From NCBI GenBank assembly GCA_020697055.1, contig JAJFBP010000018.1:10730-42729 (forward strand): a DNA stretch of 32,000 nt, in the 5' to 3' direction. The translations under genes were made by a program, and so were the position numbers. Positions within the stretch are counted from its first letter, which is position 1. Each line of letters begins with the position of its first letter. This document shows positions 2,171 to 25,892 of the stretch, in pieces. The notes below the pieces were generated by a model that saw only the letters and a list, made by a program, of their open reading frames with translations, was not told the DNA's origin and ran no database searches. The DNA comes from Panacagrimonas sp. GTDB lineage: Bacteria > Pseudomonadota > Gammaproteobacteria > Nevskiales > Nevskiaceae.

Positions 2171-2232
2171 CTTCTCTTCTACAGCGGTGCGGCTACAATG
2201 CGCGCCCTTTGCTGTGCGGCAGCGGTTCGAGT

Positions 2233-2307
2233 GGGTTGCTAGCTCAATGGTAGAGCAGCTGACTCTTAATCAGTAGGTTCGGGGTTCGAGTCCCTGGCAG
2301 CCCACCA
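2233..2307 (+). tRNA. tRNA-Lys (anticodon CTT)
   Basis: The acceptor GGGTTGC pairs with GCAGCCC. The D-arm is AGCTCAATGGTAGAGC, the anticodon loop is CTCTTAA, the T-arm is GGGGTTCGAGTCCC(T), and the 3' end is A-CCA. Confidence 0.95.
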
Positions 2308-7097: not shown

Positions 7098-7100
7098 CCT

Positions 7101-7802: not shown

Positions 7803-7818
7803 GATATACGGCCATTTA

Positions 7819-7832
7819 TATACATATGTATA
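7819..7832. promoter_or_regulatory. Perfect 14-bp palindrome TATACATATGTATA in the desT/desC divergent intergenic region (candidate operator)
   Basis: Read directly; the sequence is its own reverse complement. It sits in the only AT-rich stretch of this part of the window, between the divergent starts at 7802 (-) and 7887 (+). Confidence 0.4.
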
Positions 7833-7886
7833 GACATGTGTAATCACATCTGTGCATCATCGCCCTGAATCTACCGTCGTCCCTCC

Positions 7887-8960: not shown

Positions 8961-8971
8961 TTCCCGATCCC

Positions 8972-10084: not shown

Positions 10085-10088
10085 TGCG

Positions 10089-10943: not shown

Positions 10944-10994
10944 GGGCGGAGGTTGAACGATCGGTTTTTCCAAGCCGGCCCTGGAGTGAGAACG

Positions 10995-11747: not shown

Positions 11748-11819
11748 GTTTCGCCTCACGCGACGTCCGCGGAATCCGCCATCGACCAAGAGCGGAGCCG
11801 CACAGGGAGGAATCACCGC

Positions 11820-12596
11820 ATGGCCGAAGACTCGGCGCCACCGCCGGCCTCACCGTCGACCCAGAGCGGGGTCGCGAACCTCGCTGAACAGCGGCGCGCG
11901 TACATCCAGTTCGACATGCTGGTGATTCCGCTGATCGTGCTGCTGTTCATGGGCATCTTCAGCTTCCACTTCGCGCTGCTGGTCGGCGACTGGGACTACT
12001 GGGTCGACTGGCGCGATCGCCGCTGGTGGCCGCTGGTGACGCCGCTGTGCCTGGCGGTGTTGCCCGGCGTGTTCGGCTACCTGCTGTGGGAGCGCCTGCG
12101 CCTGCCGCTGGCCGGCACGCTGACGATCCTGTGCCTGACGGTGGCTTCCTGGATCAGCCGTTATCTGAACTTCTACCTGTTCGCGGATTTTCCGATGAAC
12201 ATGGTGTGGCCTTCGACCTACGTGGCGCTGGGCCTGATCTTCGACTGCATCCTGCTGCTGTCGCGCAGCTTCTTCTGGACCGGTCTGGCGGGCGGCTTCC
12301 TGTTCGGCCTGCTGGTGTATCCGCTCAACTGGCCGCTGCTCGCGCCCTACATGGTGCCGGTGGAACTGCACGGGACGATGCTCACCGTGGCCGACCTGCA
12401 GGGCTACGAATACGTGCGCACCGCCATTCCCGAATACGTGCGCAAGATCGAGCAATCCACGCTGCGCACCTTCGGTGAGGCGGTGACGCCGCTGACGGCG
12501 GTGTTCGCCGGGTTCGTCAACATCCTCAACACCTGGCTGTGGATGTGGGTCGGCTACCTCGGCGCCAAGGCCGTGTGGATCCGGAAGATCACGTGA
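11820..12596 (+). CDS. xmoA: Copper membrane monooxygenase subunit A (AmoA/PmoA family)
   Basis: GGGAGG lies 9 nt upstream of the start. The AmoA/PmoA hallmarks GDWDYWVDWRDRRWWP and ..TAIPEYVRKIEQSTLRTFG.. are present. 258 aa with multiple TM helices. Confidence 0.95.
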   Translation: MAEDSAPPPASPSTQSGVANLAEQRRAYIQFDMLVIPLIVLLFMGIFSFHFALLVGDWDYWVDWRDRRWWPLVTPLCLAVLPGVFGYLLWERLRLPLAGTLTILCLTVASWISRYLNFYLFADFPMNMVWPSTYVALGLIFDCILLLSRSFFWTGLAGGFLFGLLVYPLNWPLLAPYMVPVELHGTMLTVADLQGYEYVRTAIPEYVRKIEQSTLRTFGEAVTPLTAVFAGFVNILNTWLWMWVGYLGAKAVWIRKIT

Positions 12597-13813
12597 GCGC
12601 GGTCCTGCGATGGCTGGTCGCGATGGGCCTTGCGCTGGTCGCCAGCGCCGTGGGCGCGCACGGCGAAAAGGCGCAGATGCCGCAGCTGCGCATGAGCACG
12701 GTGCACTGGTTCGATCTCGAGGTCTCGACCACCAAGCTTTCGGTCAACGACGAGATCGTCGTACGCGGCCGCTTCATGCCCTCGATGCACTGGCCCCATC
12801 ACGTCGAATCGATCGAGGACACCGCGTTTCTCAACATCGGCGTCCCCGGCCCCGCGTTCGTGCGCCTGGAATCGCGGGTCAACGGCGTGCCGATGATCCG
12901 CTCGACGCGCTTCTTTCGCGGTGAAACCTACGAATTCATGATCCGCATGAAGGCGCGCAAGCCCGGGCGCTACCACGTCCACCCGCTGATCAACGTCAAG
13001 GGCACCGGCCCGATCATCGGACCCGGCCGCTGGATCGAGGTCGGCGGCGATCCCGCCGCATTTGAACTCAAGGCCAAGACGCTGCTCGGCCGGGAGATCG
13101 ACCTGGAGTCCTACGGCTTCGCCAACGTACTCGGCTGGTCGGCGTTCTGGTTCCTGCTCGGCCTGTCCTGGTTCGTCTACTGGCTGTGGAAGTGCCCGAT
13201 CGTGATCCCGCGCTTCAAGCAGCGCGACGAACTGGGCGTGGACGCCGACCGGATGATCACGCGCACCGATCGCCGCACCGGCCTGATCTACCTGGCCGTC
13301 ACGCTGTGCGCGATCGTCGGCGGCTACCAGTACGCGCAGGCGTCCTACCCGATCACCACGCCGCTGCAGACCGGGCGCGTCGACGTGCCGCCGGCCGATC
13401 CCGGCCCGCGCGTCGTGACGGCCACGATGGTCGAGGCGCGCTACCGAATTCCGGGTCGCAGCTTTCGCATCGAGATGGAAGTGACCAACCACGGGGACAA
13501 GGCGCTCTCGATCGGCGAAATGGCCGCCGGCAACCTGCGCTTCATCAACGCCGCGGTGAAGCCGGTGCAGCCGGCCGACGAGGACGATCTGGTCGCCGTC
13601 GATTCGCTGCGCGTCGAGAACGCGCCGATCCCGCCCGGCGAGACCCGCACCGTCGTGATCTACGCCGACGACGCGCTGTGGGAGACCCAGCGCATGACCA
13701 CGATGATCAAATCGCCCGATGCCAACGTCGCCGCGCTGCTGTTCTTCTACGACACCGACGGCCGGCGCCACCACGTCGAGATCGGCGGGCCGATGATCCC
13801 GGTGTTCGGTTGA
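12593..13813 (+). CDS. xmoB: Copper membrane monooxygenase subunit B (AmoB/PmoB family)
   Basis: The GTG start overlaps the xmoA stop (GTGA). The signal peptide ends ..ASAVGA|HGEKAQMPQLRMSTVHWFDL, which is the PmoB-type mature N-terminus. The HxH motif (RYHVHPLINV) and GTGPIIGPGRWIEVGG are present, followed by two TM helices and a C-terminal cupredoxin-like domain. Confidence 0.93.
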   Translation: MSAVLRWLVAMGLALVASAVGAHGEKAQMPQLRMSTVHWFDLEVSTTKLSVNDEIVVRGRFMPSMHWPHHVESIEDTAFLNIGVPGPAFVRLESRVNGVPMIRSTRFFRGETYEFMIRMKARKPGRYHVHPLINVKGTGPIIGPGRWIEVGGDPAAFELKAKTLLGREIDLESYGFANVLGWSAFWFLLGLSWFVYWLWKCPIVIPRFKQRDELGVDADRMITRTDRRTGLIYLAVTLCAIVGGYQYAQASYPITTPLQTGRVDVPPADPGPRVVTATMVEARYRIPGRSFRIEMEVTNHGDKALSIGEMAAGNLRFINAAVKPVQPADEDDLVAVDSLRVENAPIPPGETRTVVIYADDALWETQRMTTMIKSPDANVAALLFFYDTDGRRHHVEIGGPMIPVFG

Positions 13814-14781: not shown

Positions 14782-16691
14782 TCGAGGCGTACGCCGCGGG
14801 CGCACGCGCGCTCGCCGCGCTGTGCGGCGCCTACCTGATCGGCACCCCGCTGTTCCTCTTGCGGGCAGGCGCCTCCGATGACCCGGCGGTGCGGGCCTGG
14901 CGCGCGCGCCTGCTTCGCTTTTTCCCGATCGCGGCGCTGGGCCTGCTGTTCGCGCTGCTCGGACTGCTGCACGCGCAGGCCAGCGGCGTCGCGGCCGCAG
15001 TCGCCGACCTGGCGCTGACGCGCGACATCGCATCGAGCACGGCGTTCGGCCGGATCGCGCTCGTGCGACTGGGCCTGGCGCTGCTGCTGGTACCGCTTGC
15101 GATCGGGTGCGCGGTGCGGGCCGGCGATCGCATCTCGATCGCCGCAGTGGCGGCGATGCTGCTCGCGGCCGTCGTCGTCGGCGCCGGCCCGTTGTCGGGC
15201 CACGCCGCGGGCACGGACGTCGCCACGGTGCTGGTCACGCTGCACGTCGTCCACGTGCTGGCGCTCGCCTGCTGGATCGGCGGCCTGCCCGCGTGGATCA
15301 CGCTCGCGCGCGCGGCGCAGCACGACCACGACGGCTCCATCCGGGCGTTTGCCGCGGTCGCGATGACGCGCTTCTCGCGCTTCGCCCTGCCCTGCATGGC
15401 GGTGATCGTGGTCGCCGGCAGTCTGATCGCATTGGAATTCGTGGACGACCAGGGCGATCTGCTCGGCACGCGCTACGGGCGCCTGCTGTGCCTGAAGATC
15501 CTCGCGCTGCTCGCGGTGCTCGCGATCGCCCATCGCCTCCGTACGCGCTGGTTGCCGCGCCTGGACGAACCGGCCGACCTCGACGTCCACGCCGACGGCG
15601 TGCGACGCACGCAGCGTGAAGCGCTGTTCGCGGTGGTGGTGCTGGCGCTCGGCGCGGGCCTGGCGCAGACCACGCCCGCGATCCACGACCAGCCGCACTG
15701 GTGGCTGCCGTGGCGCCTGTCGTTCGATGCGAGCGCGGAAGTGCCCGGCTCGCGCATCGCGGTGCTCGTCGGCGCCGGCCTTCTGATCGCCGCGGCGTGG
15801 TGGGCGGCGCTCGGGGCGCGATCGGGTCGCGGCGCGCGGAGGGGCATCGGCGTTCTCGGCCTCGCGGGCCTCGGCACCGCGGCCTGGGGCCTGTCGGTGC
15901 CGGCCTATCCCGACACGTTCCTGCGCTCGCCGGTGCCCTACCTGACGCTGTCGATCGACCAGGGACGCCGGGCGTTCGCGCAGAACTGCGTGGCGTGCCA
16001 CGGCACCGGCGGCCTGGGCGACGGCGTGCTCGCGAGCACCTTGCGCAGGCCGCCCGCCGACATGAGCGCGCCGCACACCGCGCTGCACACCGCCGGCGAC
16101 ATGTACTGGTGGATCACGCACGGCATGCCCGAGGGGCCGATGCCGGGATTCGGCTCCGTGCTCGATGACGAGCAGCGCTGGGACACCGTGAACTTCCTGC
16201 GCGTGTTTTCGCAGGGCTTCCAGGCGCGCGTGCTGTCGCCGCGGATCGTGCCGCGCGGTCCCTGGCTCGGCGCGCCGGACTTCTACTACGCCACCGCCGA
16301 CGGCGGACGCGCGCAGCTCAAGGACCTGCGCGCCGTGCGCGCCGCGCTGATCGTGTTCACCGTCGCCGGGGATCCGCGTTCGCTCGCGCGGCTCGGGGCA
16401 TTGCGCTCACGCGCCGACCCGCGGCTGGCGATCGTCGAACCGACCTCGCCCGACGTGTGGCAGGCCTACCAATTCCTCACGCGCACGCTGGCGGACCGCG
16501 GCGCGCCGGACCGGCTCGACCTGCCGCGCCGCCATGCCGAGTTCCTGGTCGATCGCTTCGGCTACGTGCGCGCGCGATGGCTGCCGGAGGACGATCCGAC
16601 TCACGCCAACGATTTCGATCTCGATGCGGCCGTGTCGGCGCTGGCTGAAGAGCCCGAGATCCTGCCGCCCCCGGATCTGCACCTGCATTGA
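14778..16691 (+). CDS. copD: CopD-family copper membrane protein fused to a c-type cytochrome domain and a C-terminal thioredoxin/peroxiredoxin-like (Cys-less) domain
   Basis: The GTG start overlaps the copC stop (GTGA). The first ~300 aa are polytopic and CopD-like. They are followed by CVACHG..(M) as in cytochrome c, then ..AEFLVDRFGYVRARW.., which resembles the AhpC/TSA/SCO fold. Confidence 0.88.
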   Translation: MIEAYAAGARALAALCGAYLIGTPLFLLRAGASDDPAVRAWRARLLRFFPIAALGLLFALLGLLHAQASGVAAAVADLALTRDIASSTAFGRIALVRLGLALLLVPLAIGCAVRAGDRISIAAVAAMLLAAVVVGAGPLSGHAAGTDVATVLVTLHVVHVLALACWIGGLPAWITLARAAQHDHDGSIRAFAAVAMTRFSRFALPCMAVIVVAGSLIALEFVDDQGDLLGTRYGRLLCLKILALLAVLAIAHRLRTRWLPRLDEPADLDVHADGVRRTQREALFAVVVLALGAGLAQTTPAIHDQPHWWLPWRLSFDASAEVPGSRIAVLVGAGLLIAAAWWAALGARSGRGARRGIGVLGLAGLGTAAWGLSVPAYPDTFLRSPVPYLTLSIDQGRRAFAQNCVACHGTGGLGDGVLASTLRRPPADMSAPHTALHTAGDMYWWITHGMPEGPMPGFGSVLDDEQRWDTVNFLRVFSQGFQARVLSPRIVPRGPWLGAPDFYYATADGGRAQLKDLRAVRAALIVFTVAGDPRSLARLGALRSRADPRLAIVEPTSPDVWQAYQFLTRTLADRGAPDRLDLPRRHAEFLVDRFGYVRARWLPEDDPTHANDFDLDAAVSALAEEPEILPPPDLHLH

Positions 16692-16707
16692 GTCGGCAGT
16701 CGATGTC

Positions 16708-16751
16708 GGGATGCTCCGCCTGTGGCGGACCGGGAAAGCCAGGCGCATCCC
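16708..16751. terminator. Nested inverted repeats between the two convergent operons (candidate bidirectional terminator)
   Basis: The outer arm GGGATGC (16708-16714) pairs with GCATCCC (16745-16751). An inner hairpin TCCGCC-TGT-GGCGGA spans 16715-16729. There is no U-tract. Confidence 0.25.
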
Positions 16752-16766
16752 GCCAATGCGTCACCA

Positions 16767-17099
16767 TCATCCGCAGCACCCGCTCCCCATCCGCAAGCAA
16801 TCCAGTCCATCCAGCGCGATGTGGATCAGCAACCCGATCGCCACGACGCGGCTACGCCGGGGCGCCAGCAGCAGCGCATATACCCCGACGGCCGGCGCGG
16901 TGTGCAGCGGATGAAAGCCCAGGCTGCAGCGTTCGTCCGGCGAATAGACCGGATCGGCGAGCAGGTGATCCACGTCGATGAGCCAGCCGGCCAGCATCAG
17001 CAGCCAGGCGCGCTTCCAGCCGTCGCGATACGCCAGCCGCGCCACCGCCAGCGGTACCAGTGCGTGCAGGACCAGGTGCAGCAGCGCGAAGGCGCTCAT
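16767..17099 (-). CDS. Small integral membrane protein (DUF6122-like by recollection)
   Basis: 110 aa, MSAFALLHLVLHALVPLAVARLAYRDGWKRAWLLMLAGWLIDVDHLLADP..GFHPLH..LLIHIALDGLDC. The ATG overlaps the nadR stop (ATGA at 17096-17099). The 354-aa track ORF is an upstream shadow over nadR. Confidence 0.65.
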   Translation of the reverse strand: MSAFALLHLVLHALVPLAVARLAYRDGWKRAWLLMLAGWLIDVDHLLADPVYSPDERCSLGFHPLHTAPAVGVYALLLAPRRSRVVAIGLLIHIALDGLDCLRMGSGCCG

Positions 17100-18115
17100 C
17101 GCGAAGCCTCGATCTCGAGTCGCCGCGCCACCGCCTGCACGCGCGCTTCGAGCGGCCCGCCGACCCGCAGCACGCGATCGGCGTGCGGTGCCAGCCGTTC
17201 CAGGTACCACGCGTGCTGCCGCGCGCGGAACGCATCGTCGCGACGCGTTCCGTCCTGCACGAAATCGAAGTCCGGCTCGCACAGCACCAGCAGGTCGTAG
17301 TGGCGGTTGGCCAGCTCGATCAGACCCGGCGGCGCCCGTCCGAAATCCTCGAGGCAGTAGAACAGCGTCGTCAGCGGCGTGGTGTCGCCGATCACCAGGC
17401 GACACCCTTCGTCGCGCGCCGCCTGCTCCTCGCGCAGCACCTGCGCCCCGGCGATCGGCGGCAGATCGCCCTCGTCGAGCCGTCCGCCTCGCTCCACCCA
17501 TCGATCGCGTCCGTACTCCTGCGCGCATCGTGCCCGCGGCAGGCGCGCCGCCAGCGCCCGCGCCAGCGTGGTCTTGCCGCTGGACTCGCCGCCGAGCACG
17601 CCGATGCGCGGCACCAGCGACGCGAACACTTCGGGCGCGACGTGCGCGCGGTGTGCGAACGGATCGGTGCGCAGCCGCGACGCGCTGATCGGAATCCGCG
17701 CCCGCGCCGGATCGACCATGACGTGCGCGACGGGGCGGCCGAACTGCTCCGACAGCGCCGCCGCGAATCCGTCGCCGTACGCCTCGCTGGTGAACACCGC
17801 GTCGGGCACGCAGCCGAAGCGGGTCACGCACTGGTCGCCGCAGAAGCGGCGATGCACCGCTTCCGGGTCGTCGTCGTTGTGCGGCAGGCCATCGGCCTGG
17901 TCGAGCACCCGCCAGCGCAGCGCCGGATGACCGGCAAAGCGCGCCTCGAACCAGCGCCGCCGTTCAAAAGGCTCGCAGTGCGCGAACTCCGGCCGCGAAT
18001 AGCTCAGCAGCAGCACCTCGTCGCACCGGGCCAGCGCCGTTGCGATCAGCAGCTCGTGCCCGAGGTGCAGCGGGCAGAACTTGCCGATCACCAGGCCACG
18101 AGCGAAGCGCTTCAT
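17096..18115 (-). CDS. nadR: NadR-type bifunctional NMN adenylyltransferase / ribosylnicotinamide kinase (no N-terminal HTH)
   Basis: 339 aa. VIGKFCPLHLGH is the nucleotidyltransferase (H/T)xGH motif. The second domain carries the P-loop VLGGESSGKTTLARALA. The ATG overlaps the pnuC stop (ATGA at 18112-18115). Confidence 0.9.
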   Translation of the reverse strand: MKRFARGLVIGKFCPLHLGHELLIATALARCDEVLLLSYSRPEFAHCEPFERRRWFEARFAGHPALRWRVLDQADGLPHNDDDPEAVHRRFCGDQCVTRFGCVPDAVFTSEAYGDGFAAALSEQFGRPVAHVMVDPARARIPISASRLRTDPFAHRAHVAPEVFASLVPRIGVLGGESSGKTTLARALAARLPRARCAQEYGRDRWVERGGRLDEGDLPPIAGAQVLREEQAARDEGCRLVIGDTTPLTTLFYCLEDFGRAPPGLIELANRHYDLLVLCEPDFDFVQDGTRRDDAFRARQHAWYLERLAPHADRVLRVGGPLEARVQAVARRLEIEASR

Positions 18116-18669
18116 GCGAGCTGCGCCCGCCAGTGGCGCCACGCGACCAGCGCGTTGATCCAGTACGCCGCGTACAGCGCGGCCGTGACGTACAGCCCGC
18201 GATTGGCGAACAGCGGGATCGCCAGCGTGTTGACCAGCAGCCACACCGGCCAGGTCTCGAGATGGCGCCGCATCAGCAGCAGCTGCGCCACCACGCTGAA
18301 GCTGAGCACCAGCGAATCCACGAACGGTGCATAGGCGTCGGTCCACGCGTGCAGCAGCGCGCCGTATCCCGCGCCGCCCAGCAGGCCGCCGATCGCGCTG
18401 AGCAGCAGCATCCGGCGCGGCGCGCGGGTGATCGCCAACGGCCCGTCGCGATCGGCGCCGTGCAGCCACTGCCACCAGCCGATCGCGCTGGCGACGATGA
18501 AGAACCCCTGCAGGCTTGCGTCCGCGTAGAGCCGCGCGTGCACGAACACCAGCGTGAACAGCGCGCAGCCGAGGATGCCGATCCACCAGGTGTGCACGCT
18601 GTTGCGCCCGGCCAGCAGGATCGAGACCGTGGCCAGACCGTTGGCGGTGATTTCCAGCGGATCGGTCAC
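18112..18669 (-). CDS. pnuC: Nicotinamide riboside transporter PnuC
   Basis: 185 aa, polytopic, with PnuC-typical Trp-rich motifs (..GRNSVHTWWIGILG.., ..AIGWWQWLHG..). The GTG start overlaps the upstream stop (GTGA at 18666-18669). Confidence 0.88.
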   Translation of the reverse strand: MTDPLEITANGLATVSILLAGRNSVHTWWIGILGCALFTLVFVHARLYADASLQGFFIVASAIGWWQWLHGADRDGPLAITRAPRRMLLLSAIGGLLGGAGYGALLHAWTDAYAPFVDSLVLSFSVVAQLLLMRRHLETWPVWLLVNTLAIPLFANRGLYVTAALYAAYWINALVAWRHWRAQLA

Positions 18670-20030
18670 GCGACCTCGGCGTCCGCCAGTTCGCTACGGT
18701 ACTGCTGCACCTTGTCCTCGGCCTCGAGTGTTTCGACTTCGACCGGCTGCGCACCGAACAGTGGGCGCAGCGCCTCGACGGCCTGGCCCGCGTGGAGCTC
18801 GCGTTCGTGAGGTCGCAGGCTCAGCGCCAGCGCACCGTCCGCGGCCTGCCGGAATCCGTAGTGCGACAGCGGCACGCCGGCCAGCGCGTGGCTGACATCG
18901 ATGTTGTTGAACCATTCGCCCTCGGCATTGCGAAAGCGCACCGGCCGGCGTCCGCCCAGCGCGACGATGCACGGCGCGCCGCCGCGCATCGCCAGCGATC
19001 CGACGTCGCCTGTGCGATAGCGCAGCAGCGGCAGGCAGAAATTGAACCCGCCGGTGACCGTGATCTCTCCGCGCGCGCCGGCCGGCAGCGCGCGATCGGC
19101 TTCGTCCAGCACTTCCACGTACAGACGCGGCTGCAGCAGCACGTGCGCATCCAGTGCCGGATCCAACACGCCCACCGGGCCGACCTCGTTGAGCGAGTAG
19201 ACGTCGAGCACCGGACAGGCGAAGCGCTGCTCCAGTCTCGATCGCAGCGCCGGCGACAGCGCCATCGACACCGAGATCAGCGCGCGCGGACGATGACGCA
19301 CCGGCAATCGCAGCAGCTCGGCGAACGAGATCGGGTCGCCGGCGTAGACCTCGGCCTGCAGCGCGTCCAGGTACGTCGCACGGTCGTCCGGATGCTGCCA
19401 GTCGACCGGGTGCAGGTTGAGCTTCACCAGCCCGGATTCGTCCATCTGCGGCGTCACCGACACGTAGGTGAAGCAGCGTCGCTGGTGGCCCAGCAGCACG
19501 ACACCGACCTGGTCGCGACCGTGCGTCAGCGTCACACCGACGCGCTTCAGCGCGCGCTTGTGAAACGTCAGATAGCGCGCCGCGACCTGCGGATGCGAGG
19601 CGATCAGCATCGGGTGGCCGGTGGTACCGGTGGTGCGGAAGTTGATCAGCCGGTCGATCGGCGCGGTGTCGGACACGTACGCCGCGATGTCGGCTGCCAG
19701 GTCCGCCCGACGCGTGGATGGAATCACGTCGAAGCGCTGCGGCGGCGCGCCGCGCGCACGAAAGGCCGGGACCTGCGCGTGACACTGCGCGACGAACGAT
19801 GCGACCCACGCGGGCACCTCGCCCGGCGTCCACGAGACCGGCTCGTCGAGCGTGCGCGCCTCGAACGATCGCACCTCCACCAGGTCTTCGGCCGACAGCC
19901 GGTTGCCGCTTCGATTGCGAAAGACCGGTGCCGCCGGGTGTTCGCGCAGGCGCCGCAGCATCCGCGCGCCGGCGTCGGTCAGCGTCGGGTAGCGGTCCGC
20001 GTCGTCGGGTTCGTCGCCGCCACGCGTCAT
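18666..20030 (-). CDS. Adenylate-forming enzyme of the PaaK / coenzyme F390 synthetase / CapK-like family
   Basis: The motifs FRTTGTTGHP (the A3-like T/S-GTTG loop), ..VYSLNEVG.. and ..RYRTGDVG.. are present. The start is placed at ATG 20030, which overlaps the upstream stop (ATGA at 20027-20030). GTG 20042 is the alternative. Confidence 0.85.
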   Translation of the reverse strand: MTRGGDEPDDADRYPTLTDAGARMLRRLREHPAAPVFRNRSGNRLSAEDLVEVRSFEARTLDEPVSWTPGEVPAWVASFVAQCHAQVPAFRARGAPPQRFDVIPSTRRADLAADIAAYVSDTAPIDRLINFRTTGTTGHPMLIASHPQVAARYLTFHKRALKRVGVTLTHGRDQVGVVLLGHQRRCFTYVSVTPQMDESGLVKLNLHPVDWQHPDDRATYLDALQAEVYAGDPISFAELLRLPVRHRPRALISVSMALSPALRSRLEQRFACPVLDVYSLNEVGPVGVLDPALDAHVLLQPRLYVEVLDEADRALPAGARGEITVTGGFNFCLPLLRYRTGDVGSLAMRGGAPCIVALGGRRPVRFRNAEGEWFNNIDVSHALAGVPLSHYGFRQAADGALALSLRPHERELHAGQAVEALRPLFGAQPVEVETLEAEDKVQQYRSELADAEVA

Positions 20031-20608
20031 TCGCGCGACCACTTGTCCGCCGACTCCTCGGCCGCCTTCCTGGCCAGCGCCTCGCGGATCTCGCGCGCAC
20101 GTTTTTCCGCGGCGCGGCTGGCCGCCAGCAGGCGCTTGCGCTCGACCGCGCTCAGGCTCGAGAGGCGATCGGTCGCCTGCTCCAGCGTCTCGCCCTGCGG
20201 ACGAAAGTCCATGCGCGCCAGCACGACGCGGACCAGCTCTTCGCGCCGATCGGGATCCGCGACGTAGCGCGACGCGTCCGCCGCCTGCGCCAGTCCACCG
20301 ACGGCATCGTCGAACACCTGCACGAGGCCCGGCACCGGCAGCGCGGTCTTCACGAACCAGCGATCCGCGAGCAGCCAGCAGACGACCGCGGTGAGCAGCA
20401 GGCGCGCACGATCGGCCTCGCGGACCGACGACAGGCGCCGCAGCATCGCTTCCGGTGCGGTGTGCCCCACCTGCGCGAACAGATCGTTGACCAGCGCGGC
20501 GGTGTGCACCGTGCCCTTGCCCGCGATCCGCGGCGGCAGCAGGAACTCCGGCGGCAGATCGATCAGCCGTCGCAGCAGGGTTTCGAGCTCGGGTCCGGGG
20601 TTCTGCAT
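20027..20608 (-). CDS. Hypothetical protein (193 aa) with a charged helical C-terminal tail; no family recognised
   Basis: The ATG at 20608 follows GGGAGA in the 13-nt spacer after the radical-SAM stop. Its placement between two recognised genes of the same strand and its stop/start overlap (ATGA) with the downstream gene support it as real. The sequence reads MQNPGPELETLLRRLIDLPPEF... and ends ..AEKRAREIREALARKAAEESADKWSRE. Confidence 0.65.
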   Translation of the reverse strand: MQNPGPELETLLRRLIDLPPEFLLPPRIAGKGTVHTAALVNDLFAQVGHTAPEAMLRRLSSVREADRARLLLTAVVCWLLADRWFVKTALPVPGLVQVFDDAVGGLAQAADASRYVADPDRREELVRVVLARMDFRPQGETLEQATDRLSSLSAVERKRLLAASRAAEKRAREIREALARKAAEESADKWSRE

Positions 20609-20621
20609 GGCATCGATCTCC

Positions 20622-21587
20622 CTATCGGCTCGCGAACTTGGCGAAGACGTGGTTGGACGGGCAGTCGCCGCAGGTCGGGGCCGGCGCGCGCGTCCGCGCC
20701 GCGCGAAAGCGTCCCGGCAACGCGAACAGGTCCTCCAGTGTCTGCACCTCGTCGACGTGCACGCCGTAATCGCCGCAGGTGAAGCTGCACGGCGCCAGGC
20801 GGCCCTGCTCGTCGACGAACAGGAAGCGTTCGGCCGGCGCGCAATCGCCGACGCTCAGCGCGCGCCCTTCGGCGGCGGCGTGGATGCGGGAGAGATAGGA
20901 CTGCCCACCGCACAGGCGCACGCCGCGCAACGCGAGCCGGTCGCGCAGCGGCGCAACCCCTTCGGCCAATCGCCGCGTGTCGTCGGTGCGCAGCCGGTGC
21001 GCCGGATGGAATTCCGGGCGATCGCGCCCGCCCAGCGCGTTGAACGTGATCTCGTCGATGCCCCAATCGGCGAGCTCGGCGCACAGCGCCGGAAAATCCT
21101 CGAGGTTGTCGCGCATCAACACGACGTTGGCGCGCAGACGCAAGCCGCTCGGGTCGCGATCGCGCGCCAGCGCAACGACGCCGTCGCGGATCCGCTGCCA
21201 GAGGCCCGCGCGCCCGCGCGTGCGGTCGTGGAATTCGGCGAAGCCGTCGACGCTGACGGTCAGTTCCGACAGGTTCGCCAGGATCGCCGCCCTCACCGTA
21301 GCGCGATCCAGCGTGCTGCCATTGGTCGTCAGGCTCAGCGACAGCGCGTGATCGCGCCGCAGTTCCTCGCACAGCGCGAACAACGGTGTCCAGCGCAGCG
21401 GCTCGCCCCCGAGCCAGCTCAGCAGCACGCGCTCGCCGGTGCGCCGTTGCAGCGCGCCCAGCACCGCGGCGAACCGGCGGATCGAACCGACGTCCGCGTC
21501 GTGGCGCGTGCGTCGCAGCCGGCGGTCGTATGCGCAGAAGCCGCACGCGAGGTCGCAGCGCTCGGTGATGCGCCACAGCACGATCAT
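20622..21587 (-). CDS. Radical SAM enzyme with Cys-rich C-terminal (SPASM/twitch-like) extension
   Basis: 321 aa. The CxxxCxxC motif lies at the N-terminus (RITERCDLACGFCAY), followed by GGEPL. C-terminal cysteines occur in ..CAPAERFLFVDEQGRLAPCSFTCGD.. and ..CGDCPSNH... The ATG overlaps the upstream stop (ATGA at 21584-21587). The 898-aa track ORF is an upstream shadow. Confidence 0.88.
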   Translation of the reverse strand: MIVLWRITERCDLACGFCAYDRRLRRTRHDADVGSIRRFAAVLGALQRRTGERVLLSWLGGEPLRWTPLFALCEELRRDHALSLSLTTNGSTLDRATVRAAILANLSELTVSVDGFAEFHDRTRGRAGLWQRIRDGVVALARDRDPSGLRLRANVVLMRDNLEDFPALCAELADWGIDEITFNALGGRDRPEFHPAHRLRTDDTRRLAEGVAPLRDRLALRGVRLCGGQSYLSRIHAAAEGRALSVGDCAPAERFLFVDEQGRLAPCSFTCGDYGVHVDEVQTLEDLFALPGRFRAARTRAPAPTCGDCPSNHVFAKFASR

Positions 21588-23362
21588 CGCGCGCGTTCCT
21601 GGTAATGGCGGCGTGCGAACCGGCGCGCGAAGCCGAGCAGCTCGGGCCAGCTCGCCACGGGCTCCACCACCCAGCCCTGCTCGCGCTGCGCGCGCTGCAG
21701 GTCGGCGTCGGGCTTGCCCGGAAGATTGAGCACCATCGTGCCGCCACCCCGCGCGCGCGCCAGCGCCTGCGCGGCGATCGCCCAGCCGTCGCCGCCGCGT
21801 TCGTCGTTCTGGAACATCGTGGTGATGCCATCGTCGGAGATGTGCAGGATGTGCACCGGCCGATCGTGGGGTGTGCGCGCGGCGTAGGTGTCGCGCAACC
21901 GGTGGACCGGAAATGCGGTCGCACCGCCGTAGAAGCCGGTCAGCACGCGCAGGATCGCGTCCTCGCTGCGCACGAACCCGTCGGTGTGCAGGAACTGCCT
22001 GGGCCCGCTCCACAGCGTCGCCTGCACGCGCGCGCCGGCGCGCAGCGCCGAGAGCACGATCACCGCGCCGGCCAGCGTCAGCCACGAGGTCTGGCGCTGC
22101 GGATTGGGCATCGAACCCGAACTGTCGACGTACAGGTCCAGGTCCAGCGGCACCGGTTCCTGCTCGCGATCGGGCGCGCGTCCGTACACGCGCTTGACCG
22201 TGCTCAGGCCCGGGATCAGGCGCGGCGACTGCAGCACGCTCTGCAGCGGATCGAGCAGATCGATCGAGTCGCCGATATCCCAGGGCTCCAGCCCCTCGAG
22301 CTGCAGTTCGGCGCTGTGCGGCGCCGGACGCGTCGGAAACGGGATCCGATGCGGCAGCGCGCGCTCGCGGTAGTAGCGCACCGCGATGTCGTGATCGCCC
22401 AGCGACAGACCGCCGGCTCTCAGGATCTCGCCGTATTCGAACGGCTCGCGATGCTGCCCGCGCGCGCGTTCGCTCGCTGCCGTTTCCGGCGCCGGACCGC
22501 GCGCATCGACTTCGTCGGTGCCGTCCTCGCCGGTGATGCGCGGATCCCGCGACGGATGCACCGCGCCGTCGAGCTCGTCGTCCTCGACTTCCAGCCCGCC
22601 CTGAGGATCCAGGCCCGCACCCGCGGACCGCGTGTCGTGCCAGCGCGCGAGCGCCTTGGCCGCTGCATCGTCGTCGACCAGGTACGGCAGGATCAGTGTC
22701 GCGAAGCGCCCCGAACCGGCCAGCCAGTCCTTGGCGTAGACCCGCACCAGGCGCGCGCCCAGCCAGGCGTCGCCGTCGATCGGGTCCTCGCGTTGTATGC
22801 CGCTGCCCAGGCTGCCGCGCTCGAGCGTCCAGAGCTGCTCGTAGATCCGCAGGTACAGCCGCCACAGCGCGCCGGTCTGCTCCTTGTCCTTGTCCTTGCG
22901 GCGGCTCTCGTACAGGCGCCGGTACACCGCATCCATGCGCAGCTTTCGCTGGCGCTGCAGGCGATCGTTGATGTGCAGGTCGGTGTAGAGGTTGGCGACC
23001 ATCGGCGCGTGCCGCTCGAGCGTCGGCAGCGCGCGCCGCAAGCGCGCCATTAGACGCAGGTGATCGCTGCCGTTGGCCGGCGCGTACACGTGATGGCCGA
23101 TCTCGTGGGCAAGGACTTCCGGCGCGTAGTCGTCGAGCCTGAGCTCGCGCACCTGCTGCAGGTCCACGACCACCGACTGGTCGGCGAACCGGATCATCGC
23201 GAAGCTGCCGTCGAGGCCTTCGGCGCGCGCTTCGCGCGAGGTCTCGCACAGTCGCGGCGCGTGCAGCCGCGTGTAGCGGCTCCATGCGGCGAGCGCATCG
23301 GGCCATGCCTGCCGCCATCGCTCGGCCAACGACAGCGTCGTGGCGGCCGCACCCGCGCTCAT
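21584..23362 (-). CDS. Zincin-like metallopeptidase domain + von Willebrand A domain protein (DUF2201_N/DUF2201-like architecture)
   Basis: 592 aa. The N-terminal part, ..APEVLAHEIGHHVYAP..VANLYTDLHINDRL.., resembles the putative metallopeptidase domain found with VWA partners of MoxR ATPases. The C-terminal part carries the MIDAS motif LDLYVDSSGSM. The ATG overlaps the upstream stop (ATGA at 23359-23362). Confidence 0.85.
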   Translation of the reverse strand: MSAGAAATTLSLAERWRQAWPDALAAWSRYTRLHAPRLCETSREARAEGLDGSFAMIRFADQSVVVDLQQVRELRLDDYAPEVLAHEIGHHVYAPANGSDHLRLMARLRRALPTLERHAPMVANLYTDLHINDRLQRQRKLRMDAVYRRLYESRRKDKDKEQTGALWRLYLRIYEQLWTLERGSLGSGIQREDPIDGDAWLGARLVRVYAKDWLAGSGRFATLILPYLVDDDAAAKALARWHDTRSAGAGLDPQGGLEVEDDELDGAVHPSRDPRITGEDGTDEVDARGPAPETAASERARGQHREPFEYGEILRAGGLSLGDHDIAVRYYRERALPHRIPFPTRPAPHSAELQLEGLEPWDIGDSIDLLDPLQSVLQSPRLIPGLSTVKRVYGRAPDREQEPVPLDLDLYVDSSGSMPNPQRQTSWLTLAGAVIVLSALRAGARVQATLWSGPRQFLHTDGFVRSEDAILRVLTGFYGGATAFPVHRLRDTYAARTPHDRPVHILHISDDGITTMFQNDERGGDGWAIAAQALARARGGGTMVLNLPGKPDADLQRAQREQGWVVEPVASWPELLGFARRFARRHYQERAR

Positions 23363-24309
23363 CTCGGATGCGTCGCGCGCGGCATCACGCGCAGCCGATG
23401 GCTCAGCGGCGTGCCGATCACCTGCGACACCGTGCTGGTCGTGACCCGCGTTCCTTCGCCTTCGCCCCGATCCGGCGCGTGATCGAAGTCCGTGGGCGTC
23501 GCTGGGTGCAGGCTCCAGCCGTGGACGTCGGCCAGCAGCCAGAAATGACGATCGCCACTGCGTACGACGAAGTCCTCGCCGGCCGCACGGACCTGCGGGG
23601 GTTCCGGAAAGGCGCCGCCGAATCCGGTGAACGCGCCCAGCTCGAAACCGCGCGCGGCCTGGTGGGTGATCACGTCGTCGGGCGACCACCAGCGGTCGGC
23701 GCGCAGGCGCGCGCACATCGCCTCCAGCGTCAGGCTCGAAGGCGCACCCATGGCGGCGCACGCCAGCGTCGGGGTCAGCGTCGCCAGTTTTTCGAGCGCG
23801 CCCTCGCGGAAGTGCGACAGCCCCGCCGTCCACGCCAGCACCTGGCCCAGCGCCAGCAGCTCGTCGCGCGACGCGGCGCGCGGACCCAGCCGCTTCATCT
23901 GGTCGACCCATCGCACGGCGCGATCTTCCGGCACGCGGTCCAGGTGCATCGCCGCGTGGGTGAGCGCCGCGATCGTCGGCGCCGGCGCCGGTGCCACCTG
24001 TGCCGCCAGCGCCGGCAGCAGCTGCGACCACGTGCGCGCGACCAGCGGATTGCGTGCGCCGGGCCCGACGAGCTTGCGCGCGACCAGCTCCAGCGCGTGG
24101 TCGAATGCCGCGAGCGCGCACGCATCGGCGGCGTCCGGAAGGCGCGTCGCGACCGTCTCCACCAGCGGCGCCACCCCTTCGCGCAGGAACTCGCCGAAGG
24201 CCTCGGCATCGAACGTCGGCACGCGGCTGCGCATCTGGGCCACGCGCGCGTTGAACCCGCCGCGACCGGCGGCGAGCAGGCGCGCGAAGTGGGGCGGCAC
24301 GGCGCTCAC
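23359..24309 (-). CDS. Hypothetical protein (316 aa) between the AAA+ and VWA genes; no family recognised
   Basis: A GTG at 24309 overlaps the AAA+ stop (GTGA at 24306-24309). The frame is continuous and is sandwiched with 4-nt overlaps on both sides. The start is uncertain, because internal Met codons exist. Confidence 0.6.
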   Translation of the reverse strand: MSAVPPHFARLLAAGRGGFNARVAQMRSRVPTFDAEAFGEFLREGVAPLVETVATRLPDAADACALAAFDHALELVARKLVGPGARNPLVARTWSQLLPALAAQVAPAPAPTIAALTHAAMHLDRVPEDRAVRWVDQMKRLGPRAASRDELLALGQVLAWTAGLSHFREGALEKLATLTPTLACAAMGAPSSLTLEAMCARLRADRWWSPDDVITHQAARGFELGAFTGFGGAFPEPPQVRAAGEDFVVRSGDRHFWLLADVHGWSLHPATPTDFDHAPDRGEGEGTRVTTSTVSQVIGTPLSHRLRVMPRATHPR

Positions 24310-25892
24310 GACGATGCGCTCAGCCAGTGCAGGTAGTTGGTGTAGCGCTGGTGCAGGTACTTGAGCTTGAGCAGGTCGTCGTACAGGTGACCGTAGAGCT
24401 TGCGTCCGCGCGTGCGCTCGCCCACCACCTGCTCGATGCGCACCAGGCGCCCGCGCACTTCGCGCTCGCTCAGGCCGTCGAGACCGCGATCGAACTCCTC
24501 GCCCAGCGCGCCGACGGCATCGTCGTTGTCCAGGTCCAGCCGGTCGTACTCCTCGCAGGAGAGGTCGAACAGCCGTCGCAGCCAGCCCAGCCGATCGGTG
24601 CGGTACGCCGCGTTCTCCGGCAGCGCGAAGAACGGCGCGTCCGGATCGGGCTGGAGCTTGTCGCCCAGCACGAAGGGCAGCACCTGGCGCAAGTCCTCGA
24701 GCTCGACCGTCGCGTTGCCGCGAAAGTAGGCCAGCGCCTTGGCGTAGATCATCAGCGTCATCAGGTTGCGCACCGACAGGCCGTTGCGCGTCTGGCAGCC
24801 CAGGTCCTTCAGGCGATCGCGACCGTCGTCCGCGGCGGTGACCTCGCTCCATTCCACGCCCGAGAGCCGCGCGACGTCCTTGGTCATCGTCTCGAACTGG
24901 GCGCCTGCGCTCTCCATCAGCTCGAACTGGCTGGTGAAGAATTCCAGGCGACGACGGACCGGCTCGGGCAGATCGACCGCGCGGATCTCCTGTCCCAGCC
25001 GATCGATCTCGGATTCGGTGAACACGATTTCGCGCGGCACCAGTTCTTCGGGACGCAGGTTCTCCTCGATGCGCGACAGCAGCTGGCCCAGGAAGCGCGG
25101 ATTGAACGCCAGCGCGGGCACGACCACGTCGATGCGATCGCGCAGCGCCTCGATCACCTGGTAGGTGCCGCCGCCGCGATCGTCGTTGGCGGTCAGGTAC
25201 CACGCCGAATCGGGGCACTCGTAGATGTGGTTGAGCACCTCGGCGTAGTTGTCGCCCATCACCGTGAGCAGCGCGCTCTGCGTGCGCGTCGGAATGCGGT
25301 TGTATTCGTCGATGATCTTGACGCGCATGCCCAGCCAGTTGCGCCAGGCGATGCGGATGGCGTCCATGCTCTGCGCGTTGACCAGGTCGGCCGGCAGCGG
25401 GTTGCCGAGCAGGTCGGCGATCGTCATCTGCGGATGGCCGTGCTGCATCGCGCGGCGGACTTCGCGCACCGGATAGCCTGCGAGCACGCCCATCAGGATC
25501 GCGCTGGCCGTTTTGCCGCGACCGGGGCCGCCGACGAGCAGGCACTTGCGGCGCGTGGCGAAGGTGAGCAGCGGCAGCAGCACGTAACTGGAGTAGCTCT
25601 GCGCCGACGGCAGCGTCAGCGTGCGCTTGCGATCGCCGACGGTGAACTGCGACGGCGGTCCCTGGTTGTACTCGACGTCGTAGTGCGGGCTGATGATCGC
25701 GCTGTTGACGATCCAGAAGTACGCCTGGCGCAGCTTCTCGTCGAGCGGCGTCTGCGACGCGACGTCGACGTTTCCGGCCGACAACGGCCCTTCGTACAGC
25801 GTGCCCACGTCGAAGGCGCGCGTGGCCGGCGCGGCCGGCCGGGGATTGGTGGGTGCGCGCGATACGCGCTGAAAGGGTTTGAACAGGCTCAC
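24306..25892 (-). CDS. MoxR-like AAA+ ATPase with N- and C-terminal extensions
   Basis: 528 aa with Walker A LLVGGPGRGKT and Walker B VKIIDEYNR. The GTG start is preceded by GGAGAGGA. Its position next to a VWA protein is typical of MoxR/VWA pairs. Confidence 0.88.
   Translation of the reverse strand: MSLFKPFQRVSRAPTNPRPAAPATRAFDVGTLYEGPLSAGNVDVASQTPLDEKLRQAYFWIVNSAIISPHYDVEYNQGPPSQFTVGDRKRTLTLPSAQSYSSYVLLPLLTFATRRKCLLVGGPGRGKTASAILMGVLAGYPVREVRRAMQHGHPQMTIADLLGNPLPADLVNAQSMDAIRIAWRNWLGMRVKIIDEYNRIPTRTQSALLTVMGDNYAEVLNHIYECPDSAWYLTANDDRGGGTYQVIEALRDRIDVVVPALAFNPRFLGQLLSRIEENLRPEELVPREIVFTESEIDRLGQEIRAVDLPEPVRRRLEFFTSQFELMESAGAQFETMTKDVARLSGVEWSEVTAADDGRDRLKDLGCQTRNGLSVRNLMTLMIYAKALAYFRGNATVELEDLRQVLPFVLGDKLQPDPDAPFFALPENAAYRTDRLGWLRRLFDLSCEEYDRLDLDNDDAVGALGEEFDRGLDGLSEREVRGRLVRIEQVVGERTRGRKLYGHLYDDLLKLKYLHQRYTNYLHWLSASS

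Follow-up and report, generated by a model that had tools for sequence, protein, structure and literature searches.

What might a radical SAM enzyme, a 193-aa protein of unknown function and a PaaK-like adenylate-forming ligase do together when their genes are packed one against the other? This question was raised by a 32,000-nt stretch of DNA from Panacagrimonas sp. (assembly GCA_020697055.1, contig JAJFBP010000018.1, positions 10,730 to 42,729; hereafter, the window). A first-pass annotation, made from the sequence alone, had proposed that the three genes form a chemical core, and that in the absence of a precursor-peptide ORF the substrate might be one of the encoded proteins, with the 193-aa protein or a neighbouring 316-aa protein as candidates, or else a small molecule. 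In the following sections we analyzed whether these genes are intact and conserved, whether the radical SAM enzyme depends on its neighbours, and which class of substrate is compatible with its predicted fold and its genomic context.

Organization and conservation of the locus

The three ORFs are intact on the minus strand, so that the arrangement described in the first-pass annotation was confirmed. They are located within an eight-gene unit (Table 1), and no terminator-like site was found on the minus strand inside this unit. The radical SAM gene and the 193-aa gene are separated by exactly 13 nt, the 193-aa gene overlaps the ligase gene by 16 nt, the ligase stop overlaps the pnuC start (GTGA), and the radical SAM start overlaps the stop of the upstream vWA gene (ATGA). 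These junctions leave no room for a precursor-peptide ORF, as had been claimed.

Table 1. Genes of the unit, in order of transcription (positions are those of the window)
Coordinates	Strand	Length (aa)	Assignment	Sequence features
24306..25892	-	528	MoxR-like AAA+ ATPase	
23359..24309	-	316	Protein of unknown fold	Conserved GxFxGFGGxFxxPP motif; the window copy lacks about 30 residues near the C-terminus
21584..23362	-	592	Zincin-vWA protein	N-terminal zincin-like domain (invariant AHExGHH plus E116); C-terminal vWA domain with a complete MIDAS motif (D413-S-S-G-S417, T482, D510)
20622..21587	-	321	Radical SAM enzyme, twitch-type by Cys pattern	ERCDLACGFCAY (Cys11/15/18, SAM cluster); GGEP; CAPAERFLFVDEQGRLAPCSFTC; CGDCPSNH; auxiliary-cluster candidates C249, C267, C306 and C309; C169 also invariant
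20027..20608	-	193	Predicted all-alpha protein with a long C-terminal helix	Ends ...RKAAEESADKWSRE; most conserved motifs DPDRREE..R and RPxGE..QAxDRL
18666..20042	-	458	PaaK-like adenylate-forming (ANL) ligase	NFRTTGTTGHP; LRYRTGD; C-terminal Lys444; extra conserved N-terminal region of about 100 aa
18112..18669	-		PnuC nicotinamide riboside transporter	
17096..18115	-		NadR-like enzyme (NMN adenylyltransferase plus ribosylnicotinamide kinase)	No HTH domain

In order to determine whether this gene order is a chance arrangement, we collected 82 related loci from at least six phyla. About 56 of them carry the six-gene core, from MoxR to the ligase, in the same order and with near-constant protein lengths, and 37-40 of these add PnuC-NadR. 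The vWA gene lies directly upstream of the radical SAM gene in 56 loci, the MoxR protein is 526-528 aa long in 45 of 47 loci, and NadR follows the ligase and PnuC in 36-40 loci. The ligase and the 193-aa gene travel with the radical SAM gene as a trio, without MoxR/vWA, in four loci. In a further 22 loci the radical SAM gene stands alone. The family is nevertheless rare and patchily distributed: it was found in about 199 of 185,579 species, and in 1 of 200 sampled gammaproteobacterial families, and it is therefore not a core salvage step. No paper found in our literature searches describes this cassette.

The flanking genes were assigned by profile searches. The MoxR protein matched Pfam AAA_3 and AAA_lid_2. 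The 592-aa protein gave no Pfam or PDB sequence hit, and its two domains were recognized from the invariant columns of the family alignment, whereas the 316-aa protein gave no hit in Pfam, NCBIfam or PDB. PnuC, the only one encoded in this genome, matched Pfam NMN_transporter (163 bits) and TIGR01528 (78 bits against a cut-off of 42). NadR matched Pfam AAA_28, and TIGR01526 with 136 bits, a domain match below the full equivalog cut-off. Hence, the unit ends in a PnuC-NadR pair for nicotinamide riboside salvage.

Sequence and predicted fold of the radical SAM enzyme

The protein belongs to the radical SAM superfamily: C11-x3-C15-x2-C18 and G60-G61-E62-P63 are invariant, Pfam Radical_SAM (PF04055) scores 61 bits against a cut-off of 29.5, and the AF2 model (pLDDT 88.8) matches radical SAM structures at E = 1e-13. 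No NCBIfam equivalog was reached. The first-pass annotation had recognized auxiliary-cluster (SPASM/twitch) cysteines at the C-terminus, and this was borne out at the level of sequence. Only C249-x12-G262-x4-C267 and C306-x2-C309 are conserved, and no further Cys follows C309, so that the seven-Cys SPASM motif (CX9-15GX4C ... CX2CX5CX3C ... C) is not present; there was no SPASM Pfam hit, and all SPASM equivalogs fell far below their cut-offs. The pattern fits one auxiliary cluster, i.e., a twitch domain rather than a full SPASM domain. The predicted beta-hairpin (E255-258 and E263-265) agrees with this pattern, the four Cys are invariant both in cassette and in stand-alone copies, and the twitch model NF033640 (N_Twi_rSAM) scored 34.5 bits against a cut-off of 170; one auxiliary cluster is therefore a prediction from the Cys pattern.

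The best full-length fold match in the PDB was BlsE, a nucleoside-sugar decarboxylase (7vob, TM 0.72/0.71), and DesII, viperin and MoaA, all of them nucleotide-sugar or nucleotide enzymes, were also among the hits. Many Arg, Lys and Trp residues are invariant. On the other hand, the nearest sequence relatives with solved structures include the peptide maturases ChlB, CteB and SkfB, and full-length sequence or fold similarity was found to CteB, SuiB, SkfB, MftC and DynA-type maturases. The N-terminal peptide-recognition (RRE) domain of CteB, SuiB and SkfB is, however, absent: the protein starts 10 residues before the CX3CX2C motif, and the alignment begins at residue 102 of CteB and at residue 114 of SkfB.

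The similarity to viperin opens the possibility of an anti-phage or conflict system, in which a viperin-like enzyme makes a modified nucleotide, MoxR-vWA acts as sensor or chaperone, and PnuC-NadR protect the NAD pool of the host. The PADLOC pVip models hit the radical SAM core (56 bits, E = 9e-16), MoxR-vWA modules occur in conflict systems (PMC7159879), vWA chaperones occur in predicted NrtR-controlled ADP-ribose-removal systems (PMC9503650), PnuC-NadR pairs counter NAD depletion (PMC13464706), the distribution is rare and patchy, and GmrSD/NERD genes flank the Paucimonas locus. However, the viperin equivalog (NF038283) scored only 45 bits against a cut-off of 180, the similarity is limited to the common core and is weaker than that to BlsE and CteB, and viperins are not known to carry the auxiliary-cluster Cys seen here. 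Furthermore, the other five proteins have no PADLOC hit, sequences and lengths are unusually constant across phyla (62-64% mean column identity), no copies were found in viral contigs, and stand-alone copies lie in ordinary pncA/pncB/nadV operons. This reading is considered unlikely.

The radical SAM gene occurs alone next to NAD salvage genes

We then analyzed the 22 loci in which the radical SAM gene is not accompanied by the cassette. In these loci it lies next to NAD salvage genes, usually divergent from nrtR, the product of which is a repressor that responds to ADP-ribose (PMC2330246). In 18 of the 22 a bona fide NrtR (NUDIX + NrtR_WHD) is encoded beside it, and NrtR is also adjacent in Paucimonas. 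Ten sphingomonad loci read nrtR-NADK-like-pncB <> pncA-like-radical SAM, Caulobacter reads nadM-nadV-radical SAM, and an alphaproteobacterial MAG reads prs-nadV-nadM <> radical SAM. The nrtR/radical SAM spacers hold conserved operator-like repeats, and in Bradyrhizobium DOA9 this is the only perfect copy in 7.9 Mb. In the Bradyrhizobium type NrtR may be only a local regulator rather than a regulon marker. The link does not extend to every locus: no NrtR_WHD match was found in the genome of the window (90.6% complete), no shared operator was found upstream of the six-gene operons, and the three betaproteobacterial trio loci have no NAD genes nearby.

In order to test whether the enzyme can exist without its cassette partners, nine of the stand-alone genomes were searched for the 193-aa protein. 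No homologue was detected, while the genome of the window, used as positive control, scored 9e-84. Five of these genomes were also searched for the ligase and the vWA-zincin protein, and both were absent. When the two groups of radical SAM sequences were compared, all 59 invariant residues were shared and no position was fixed differently between the two clades.

These results bear on the rival proposal of a RiPP-like or protein-maturation pathway, in which the radical SAM enzyme would modify the C-terminal tail of the 193-aa protein (or the 316-aa protein), and the ligase and the zincin would then process it into a peptide-derived cofactor or product, as with MftC/MftA, PqqE/PqqA or scaffold-peptide (PEARL-type) pathways. 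In its favour are the near-invariance across phyla of the tail ...ADKW(T/S)RE, the similarity to maturases described above, the zincin-type protease motif in the neighbouring gene and the tight translational coupling. Against it, the same enzyme occurs alone in the nine genomes without any 193-aa homologue and no tail-like motif lies within 10 kb; in addition, there is no precursor peptide or RRE domain, only one auxiliary cluster's worth of Cys is present, and the Trp of the tail is not conserved. We regard this proposal as improbable. Hence, the interpretation of the first-pass annotation was only partly supported: the twitch-type Cys pattern, the PaaK-like nature of the ligase and the absence of a precursor peptide hold, but its leaning towards a peptide or protein substrate was not supported, and its alternative, a small molecule, is favoured. 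The tie to NAD salvage, which is the most informative fact, was not part of that annotation.

A third proposal, that MoxR-vWA, the radical SAM enzyme and the ligase form a metal-centre or enzyme maturation module, appears very unlikely. In this view, they would assemble a cofactor for a neighbouring enzyme, here a copper monooxygenase, or would build a nicotinate-derived metallocofactor in the manner of LarB/LarE/LarC. MoxR-vWA pairs mature metalloenzymes, such as CoxD/E, NorQ/D and CobS/T, and NAD-derived cofactors such as the nickel-pincer nucleotide exist; a weak BchI-like hit (E = 0.009) and the complete MIDAS motif are also compatible with it. However, the copper monooxygenase neighbour is unique to the window, since by cluster analysis none of the other roughly 56 loci has it nearby, no conserved client enzyme accompanies the cassette, and the stand-alone radical SAM copies have no MoxR/vWA.

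The ligase and the 193-aa protein

The ligase is PaaK-like only at the superfamily level. Pfam AMP-binding (PF00501) scored 32.4 bits against a cut-off of 29.9 and the ligase profile hit the PaaK structure 2y4o at E = 1e-14, but the PaaK equivalogs (TIGR02155 and NF041878) scored 35-37 bits against cut-offs of 646-700, and the DVU_1553 family of AMP-dependent ligases (NF045666) 84.6 bits against 300, so that it belongs to neither. The TTGTTG and YRTGD motifs and the C-terminal Lys are present. The suggestion of nicotinate-type acids as candidate substrates, made in the first-pass annotation, remains reasonable.

The 193-aa protein gave no Pfam, NCBIfam, PADLOC or PDB sequence hit, and its AF2 model (pLDDT 93.5) had no PDB fold match at E < 1. 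The family comprises 693 representative clusters. Among 143 family representatives the last residue is Glu in 135 and the one before it Arg in 125, so that the protein ends in Arg-Glu in about 90% of them, but the Lys at position -5 is only 65% conserved, and the most conserved part of the protein is an internal motif and not the tail. A carrier role is thus uncertain. Given the gene overlap and the trio loci, it is more likely the partner of the ligase.

A working model for the cassette

The three genes can be seen as the catalytic centre of a conserved, undescribed cassette that belongs to NAD/ADP-ribose metabolism, an explanation which we hold to be about as likely as not. What the analysis establishes is that the radical SAM enzyme is stand-alone-competent and twitch-type by its Cys pattern, and that its gene is embedded in NAD salvage loci in two independent ways, i.e., in an operon with pnuC-nadR, as in the window, and, in other bacteria, alone, divergent from nrtR or in operons with pncA-like, pncB, nadV or nadM genes. 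Its chemistry is inferred from context and fold only. We infer that its substrate is most likely a small, phosphate-bearing NAD-derived nucleoside or nucleotide (ADP-ribose, NMN/NaMN, NR or NAD itself), that the 5′-deoxyadenosyl radical would abstract a sugar hydrogen, and that a fully Cys-ligated auxiliary cluster would take the second electron, leading to a BtrN/BlsE/DesII-type oxidation, elimination or decarboxylation. If so, this would be the first radical enzyme step linked to vitamin B3/NAD recycling.

The inference is weaker for the expanded cassette. The ligase may adenylate a carboxylate, either that of the radical SAM product (or of a nicotinate-type acid) or that of the conserved C-terminal Glu of the 193-aa protein, and then join small molecule and protein. 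The MoxR ATPase and the zincin-vWA protein would then bind the protein through the MIDAS site, remodel it and possibly clip it, and PnuC-NadR would import nicotinamide riboside and rebuild the NAD that the pathway draws on.

Comparison with characterized enzymes and systems

BlsE, the cytosylglucuronate decarboxylase of blasticidin S biosynthesis (PMC3715490), has a similar size (327 versus 321 aa), a radical SAM core with GGEP and a short Cys-bearing C-terminal domain, and it acts on a nucleoside-sugar small molecule. However, identity is only 23%, the BlsE equivalog scored 35 bits against a cut-off of 400, the C-terminal Cys pattern differs, and the genomic context is NAD salvage rather than an antibiotic cluster. 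The twitch enzymes BtrN and MoaA (reviewed in PMC9012708) have one auxiliary cluster in a truncated SPASM domain, to which the C-x12-G-x4-C hairpin signature followed by a single CxxC in the present enzyme would correspond, and act on small sugars or nucleotides, BtrN performing a two-electron oxidation. MoaA scored 44 bits against a cut-off of 284, and BtrN was not among the top fold hits.

PaaK phenylacetate-CoA ligase and PaaK-like ligases (2y4o, 6siw, AjiA1) share with the ligase the ANL fold, the A3 (TTGTTG) and A8 (YRTGD) motifs and the C-terminal catalytic Lys, but here there is the extra N-terminal region and the gene is always coupled to the 193-aa gene. The logic proposed for the expanded cassette resembles that of EF-P beta-lysylation, in which the radical SAM aminomutase EpmB works on a small molecule and the adenylating ligase EpmA acts with a dedicated protein partner, EF-P, and that of the amino-group carrier protein LysW, the essential carrier residue of which is also a C-terminal Glu. 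There is no sequence or fold relationship with either, LysW uses ATP-grasp ligases and EpmA is a class II tRNA-synthetase paralogue; attachment in the cassette is proposed by analogy only.

In the literature that could be searched, no radical SAM gene has been reported in any NrtR regulon, and the description of NrtR regulons by Rodionov et al. 2008 (PMC2330246) states that alphaproteobacterial NAD regulation was unknown; the stand-alone radical SAM genes nevertheless lie in typical nrtR divergons with pncA, pncB, nadV or nadM and a conserved operator-like site. The ternary MoxR-vWA systems of Kaur et al. 2020 (PMC7159879) have other effectors, and the single mention of a radical SAM enzyme in that work concerns a peptide effector in FtsH-type systems, but there too an AAA+ MoxR ATPase pairs with a MIDAS-bearing vWA partner. 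Finally, NARP3 (PMC13464706) is a two-gene phage module without the six upstream genes, in which, as proposed here, an HTH-less PnuC-NadR pair converts nicotinamide riboside to NAD.

Gene organization of the window

Eight genes lie head to tail on the minus strand between positions 25892 and 17096, with overlapping or near-abutting ends. Every detail that the first-pass annotation reported was found to be there, including the CDLACGFC cluster motif and the C-terminal cysteines of the radical SAM enzyme, the TTGTTG and YRTGD motifs of the ligase, and the 13-nt spacer, so that its observation held. Its interpretation was supported only in part, because the 193-aa protein, which it had named among the possible substrates, is not favored by the data presented below, whereas the small molecule that it offered as an alternative is. 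When the proteins were compared with family models, Pfam recognized Radical_SAM, AMP-binding, AAA_3, NMN_transporter and AAA_28, but NCBIfam brought none of the first six proteins to an equivalog cut-off, the best ligase hit being the DVU_1553 family with 85 bits against a cut-off of 300. No riboswitch was found in the window, and a promoter and terminator scan was uninformative, with no terminator-like site on the minus strand inside the unit. The 316-aa protein lacks about 30 residues near its C-terminus when aligned with 37 orthologues, but its reading frame is intact, and this may be a lineage-specific deletion.

Coordinates of the features in the window and in the related loci and genomes
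Location	Coordinates	Strand	Feature
Window	24306-25892	-	MoxR-like AAA+ ATPase
Window	23359-24309	-	316-aa unknown
Window	21584-23362	-	592-aa protein with an N-terminal HExxH motif and a C-terminal vWA/MIDAS domain
Window	20622-21587	-	Radical SAM enzyme, 321 aa
Window	20027-20608	-	193-aa unknown
Window	18666-20042	-	PaaK-like ligase
Window	18112-18669	-	PnuC
Window	17096-18115	-	HTH-less NadR
Window	2095-2304	+	Two tRNA genes, found by the Rfam scan
L001 (Paucimonas locus)	15913-20772		GmrSD_N and NERD/UvrD-type genes following the cassette
L035, L046, L071 (betaproteobacterial trio loci)	around 9440-9970		Conserved 169-aa gene, co-directional with and preceding the trio
L047 (sphingomonad locus)	5403-10975		nrtR, NAD-kinase-like 297-aa gene and pncB, facing a PncA-like gene and the radical SAM gene
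L068 (Chloroflexi MAG)	9431-12855		Six-gene set, short NMNAT-only NadR fragment, second trio
G001 (Bradyrhizobium sp. DOA9), C1	4324649-4324668		TTGCAA-N8-TTGCAA site between nrtR and the radical SAM gene
L029, L031, L032, L039, L041, L060, L062 (sphingomonad six-gene operons)	about 40 nt upstream of the AAA+ start		Shared upstream block, GCCTTGGCAGG...ACTGGATA

The radical SAM enzyme has a twitch-type sequence pattern

About 120 close relatives of the radical SAM enzyme (52-79% identity) are all about 320 aa long, and in an alignment of 26 of them the invariant cysteines are 11/15/18, 169, 249, 267, 306 and 309. The C249-x12-G262-x4-C267 stretch is the hairpin signature shared by SPASM and twitch domains. 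Only one CxxC follows it, which would give the ligands for one auxiliary cluster, and a single auxiliary cluster is the definition of a twitch domain (PMC9012708). The protein starts ten residues before the first cluster cysteine, and therefore it has no N-terminal peptide-recognition domain; the profile matches to CteB and SkfB begin at residues 102 and 114 of these proteins. The AlphaFold model is confident (pLDDT 88.8), and its best full-length match in the PDB is BlsE, the cytosylglucuronate decarboxylase (TM 0.72/0.71), followed by CteB, SuiB, SkfB, DesII, viperin-like enzymes, anSME and MoaA.

The radical SAM gene is found in three architectures

In order to learn in which contexts this gene is found, a scan of one genome per species was performed, which yielded 199 relatives among 185,579 species; 80 loci were then retrieved and their neighbors were scored by tblastn. 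Three architectures were observed. About 56 loci carry the six-gene core in the same order and with near-constant protein lengths, and in 37-40 of these the core is followed by PnuC-NadR; they come from Alpha-, Beta- and Gammaproteobacteria, Verrucomicrobiota, Gemmatimonadota, Chloroflexota and Thermodesulfobacteriota. Four loci have only the radical SAM, 193-aa and ligase genes (the trio), and 22 loci have the radical SAM gene alone (solo). The copper monooxygenase gene that neighbors the cassette in the window is not conserved in the other loci, and a link to it, being window-specific, was rejected. In locus L068 the six-gene set and the NadR fragment are followed by a second radical SAM, 193-aa and ligase trio, and what appeared to be a fusion of the second 193-aa protein to the ligase is a frameshift of its gene into the ligase frame. 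The betaproteobacterial trio loci are each preceded by the 169-aa gene (MNISMYNASIPVMIK...), with acyl-CoA dehydrogenase-like genes on the other strand, and no NAD genes are nearby.

The solo copies sit in NAD salvage loci. In 18 of them an NrtR gene, in which Pfam confirmed NUDIX plus NrtR_WHD, lies beside the radical SAM gene and is usually divergent from it. In ten sphingomonads (L047 and nine other loci) nrtR, a diverged NAD-kinase-like gene and pncB lie on one side, and a PncA-like gene followed by the radical SAM gene on the other; the kinase-like gene scores only 33 bits to NAD kinase models and may have another substrate. The 289-aa and 297-aa genes next to pncB in two loci are not homologous to each other, one being PncA-like and the other NAD-kinase-like. 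In a Caulobacter the order is nadM-nadV-radical SAM, and in an alphaproteobacterial MAG the gene faces nadM-nadV-prs. In Paucimonas, nrtR lies directly upstream of the whole eight-gene unit and faces pncA-like, pncB, nadE and nadM. A calcineurin-like phosphoesterase downstream of the Bradyrhizobium copy was considered as a conserved partner, but it is confined to that genus.

The nrtR/radical SAM spacers contain conserved repeat blocks, namely AGCAAATTGCAAATAACAAGTTGCAAT in Nitrobacteraceae and relatives, and a block around an imperfect TATRTGCG...CGCATAT palindrome in sphingomonads. In Bradyrhizobium sp. DOA9 the TTGCAA-N8-TTGCAA site is the only perfect copy in the 7.9-Mb genome, and a second NrtR paralogue lies about 12 kb from nadA. 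These blocks are at present only putative NrtR operators; the published NrtR motif is a 21-bp palindrome that varies by lineage, and the effector of NrtR is ADP-ribose (PMC2330246). No shared operator was seen by eye upstream of the six-gene operons across phyla; seven sphingomonad six-gene operons share an upstream block that could be a promoter or operator. In the genome of the window, PnuC is the only copy, a PncB/NadV-type gene lies elsewhere, and there is no NrtR, in that no NrtR_WHD match is present in this 90.6%-complete genome.

A defense function was also considered. PADLOC matched only the common radical SAM core, to pVip models, and a defense reading would further fit the MoxR-vWA theme (PMC7159879; PMC9503650, section 3.8) and the rarity of the family, which was found in 1 of 200 sampled gammaproteobacterial families. 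In addition, the GmrSD_N and NERD/UvrD-type genes form a defense-like neighborhood, but this was seen in the Paucimonas locus only. Against this reading stand the strong sequence constancy, the absence of copies from viral contigs, the lack of PADLOC hits for the partner proteins, and the ordinary salvage-operon setting.

The radical SAM gene occurs without its cassette partners

In a maximum-likelihood tree, 21 alphaproteobacterial solo copies were separated from the six-gene/trio copies (support 99/93), and one solo copy, the one facing nadM-nadV-prs, was nested in the six-gene clade. Across both clades 59 positions are at least 95% conserved with the same residue, including every invariant cysteine and a set of Arg, Lys, Trp, His and Asp residues, and no position is fixed differently. 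We then analyzed whether the partner genes lie elsewhere in the solo-type genomes. Nine of these genomes have no homologue of the 193-aa protein, whereas the genome of the window scores 9e-84 with the same profile, and five have no ligase or vWA-zincin homologue, again in searches with positive controls. Furthermore, no tail-like peptide, i.e., no hidden precursor with the C-terminal tail of the 193-aa protein, is encoded within 10 kb of any solo copy. The simplest reading is one reaction on one substrate that is not the 193-aa protein, and, taken together with the context and the fold relatives, a small NAD-derived nucleoside or nucleotide is inferred. A replacement for quinolinate synthase is excluded, because all five genomes checked, that of the window and those of the solo type, have NadA.

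The 193-aa protein and the ligase

The 193-aa family is large, with 693 clusters at 50% identity, nearly all of 185-215 aa, and it has no Pfam, NCBIfam, PADLOC or PDB sequence relative. Sequence-profile searches likewise revealed no remote homology of the 316-aa and vWA-zincin proteins to solved structures. The model of the 193-aa protein is very confident (pLDDT 93.5) and shows an all-alpha body and a 39-residue C-terminal helix, but it has no structural match in the PDB at E < 1. In 43 cassette orthologues the last 50 residues are almost invariant and end ...ESADKW(T/S)RE. Over 143 family representatives the last residue is Glu in 135 and the one before it Arg in 125, but Lys at -5 is found in only 93 and Trp is not conserved; the trio versions end ...KMWRE or ...KAMPE. 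The strongest conservation overall lies in an internal DPDRREE..R / RPxGE..QAxDRL block. A RiPP-like reading keeps some weight because of the conserved tail and the maturase-like relatives of the radical SAM enzyme, but the solo copies contradict it.

The ligase is an ANL enzyme of the PaaK branch, with the catalytic C-terminal Lys and a conserved extra N-terminal region, and its gene always overlaps the 193-aa gene. A free, conserved C-terminal Arg-Glu beside an adenylating enzyme suggests that the ligase may activate that carboxylate, or that it may load an acid onto the protein, but both possibilities rest on sequence alone. The neighboring vWA protein has an intact MIDAS motif and a gluzincin-like AHExGHH...E motif, so that it could bind an acidic tail and cut.

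Proposed mechanism and implications

The analysis established the gene architecture, the twitch-type sequence pattern, the NAD-salvage context in two independent forms, and the autonomy of the radical SAM enzyme in the sense described here. The chemistry, in contrast, is inferred: sugar C-H abstraction on an NAD/ADP-ribose-type substrate, with the auxiliary cluster as electron acceptor. The inference is weaker for a ligase-mediated joining of a carboxylate and the 193-aa protein, for its handling by MoxR and the vWA-zincin, and for PnuC-NadR as the NAD supply line.

NAD biosynthesis and salvage are regarded as essentially fully mapped, and no radical SAM enzyme is known to us in them. The presence of a highly conserved radical SAM enzyme in NrtR divergons and in pncA/pncB/nadV/nadM/pnuC-nadR operons of soil and water bacteria points to a missing reaction, which could be salvage from an unusual pyridine source, processing of ADP-ribose or its adducts, or synthesis of an NAD-derived metabolite. 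The stand-alone form offers a one-gene, directly testable entry point, and the analysis reduces an unknown operon to a short list of possible substrates. The six-gene form adds two proteins with no detectable homologues of known function, and a ligase-plus-tail arrangement that suggests protein tethering. In a more far-reaching reading, which is not excluded but which we consider unlikely, the radical SAM enzyme would perform a so far unknown transformation of ADP-ribose or another NAD-derived nucleotide under the control of the ADP-ribose sensor NrtR, and in the full cassette its carboxylate product, or a nicotinate-type acid, would be ligated by the PaaK-like enzyme to the Arg-Glu tail of a carrier protein whose predicted fold is unmatched in the PDB. 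The result would be a protein-bound NAD-derived group that MoxR and the zincin-vWA protein then deliver or release. If true, this would be the first radical enzyme step in NAD/ADP-ribose metabolism and a new kind of protein-tethered cofactor pathway.

In the literature that could be searched, no paper describes this cassette or connects a radical SAM enzyme with NrtR, PnuC, NadR or pncA/pncB operons, and the NrtR study (PMC2330246) lists only nrtX/nrtY as unknown regulon members and does not cover Alphaproteobacteria. What is new here is the stand-alone, NrtR-linked form of the radical SAM enzyme, the argument that its substrate is not the 193-aa protein, the trio sub-module, the conserved Arg-Glu terminus, the finding that the predicted fold of the 193-aa protein has no PDB match, and the predicted BlsE-like fold of the radical SAM enzyme, BlsE itself being an enzyme that acts on a nucleoside-sugar (PMC3715490).
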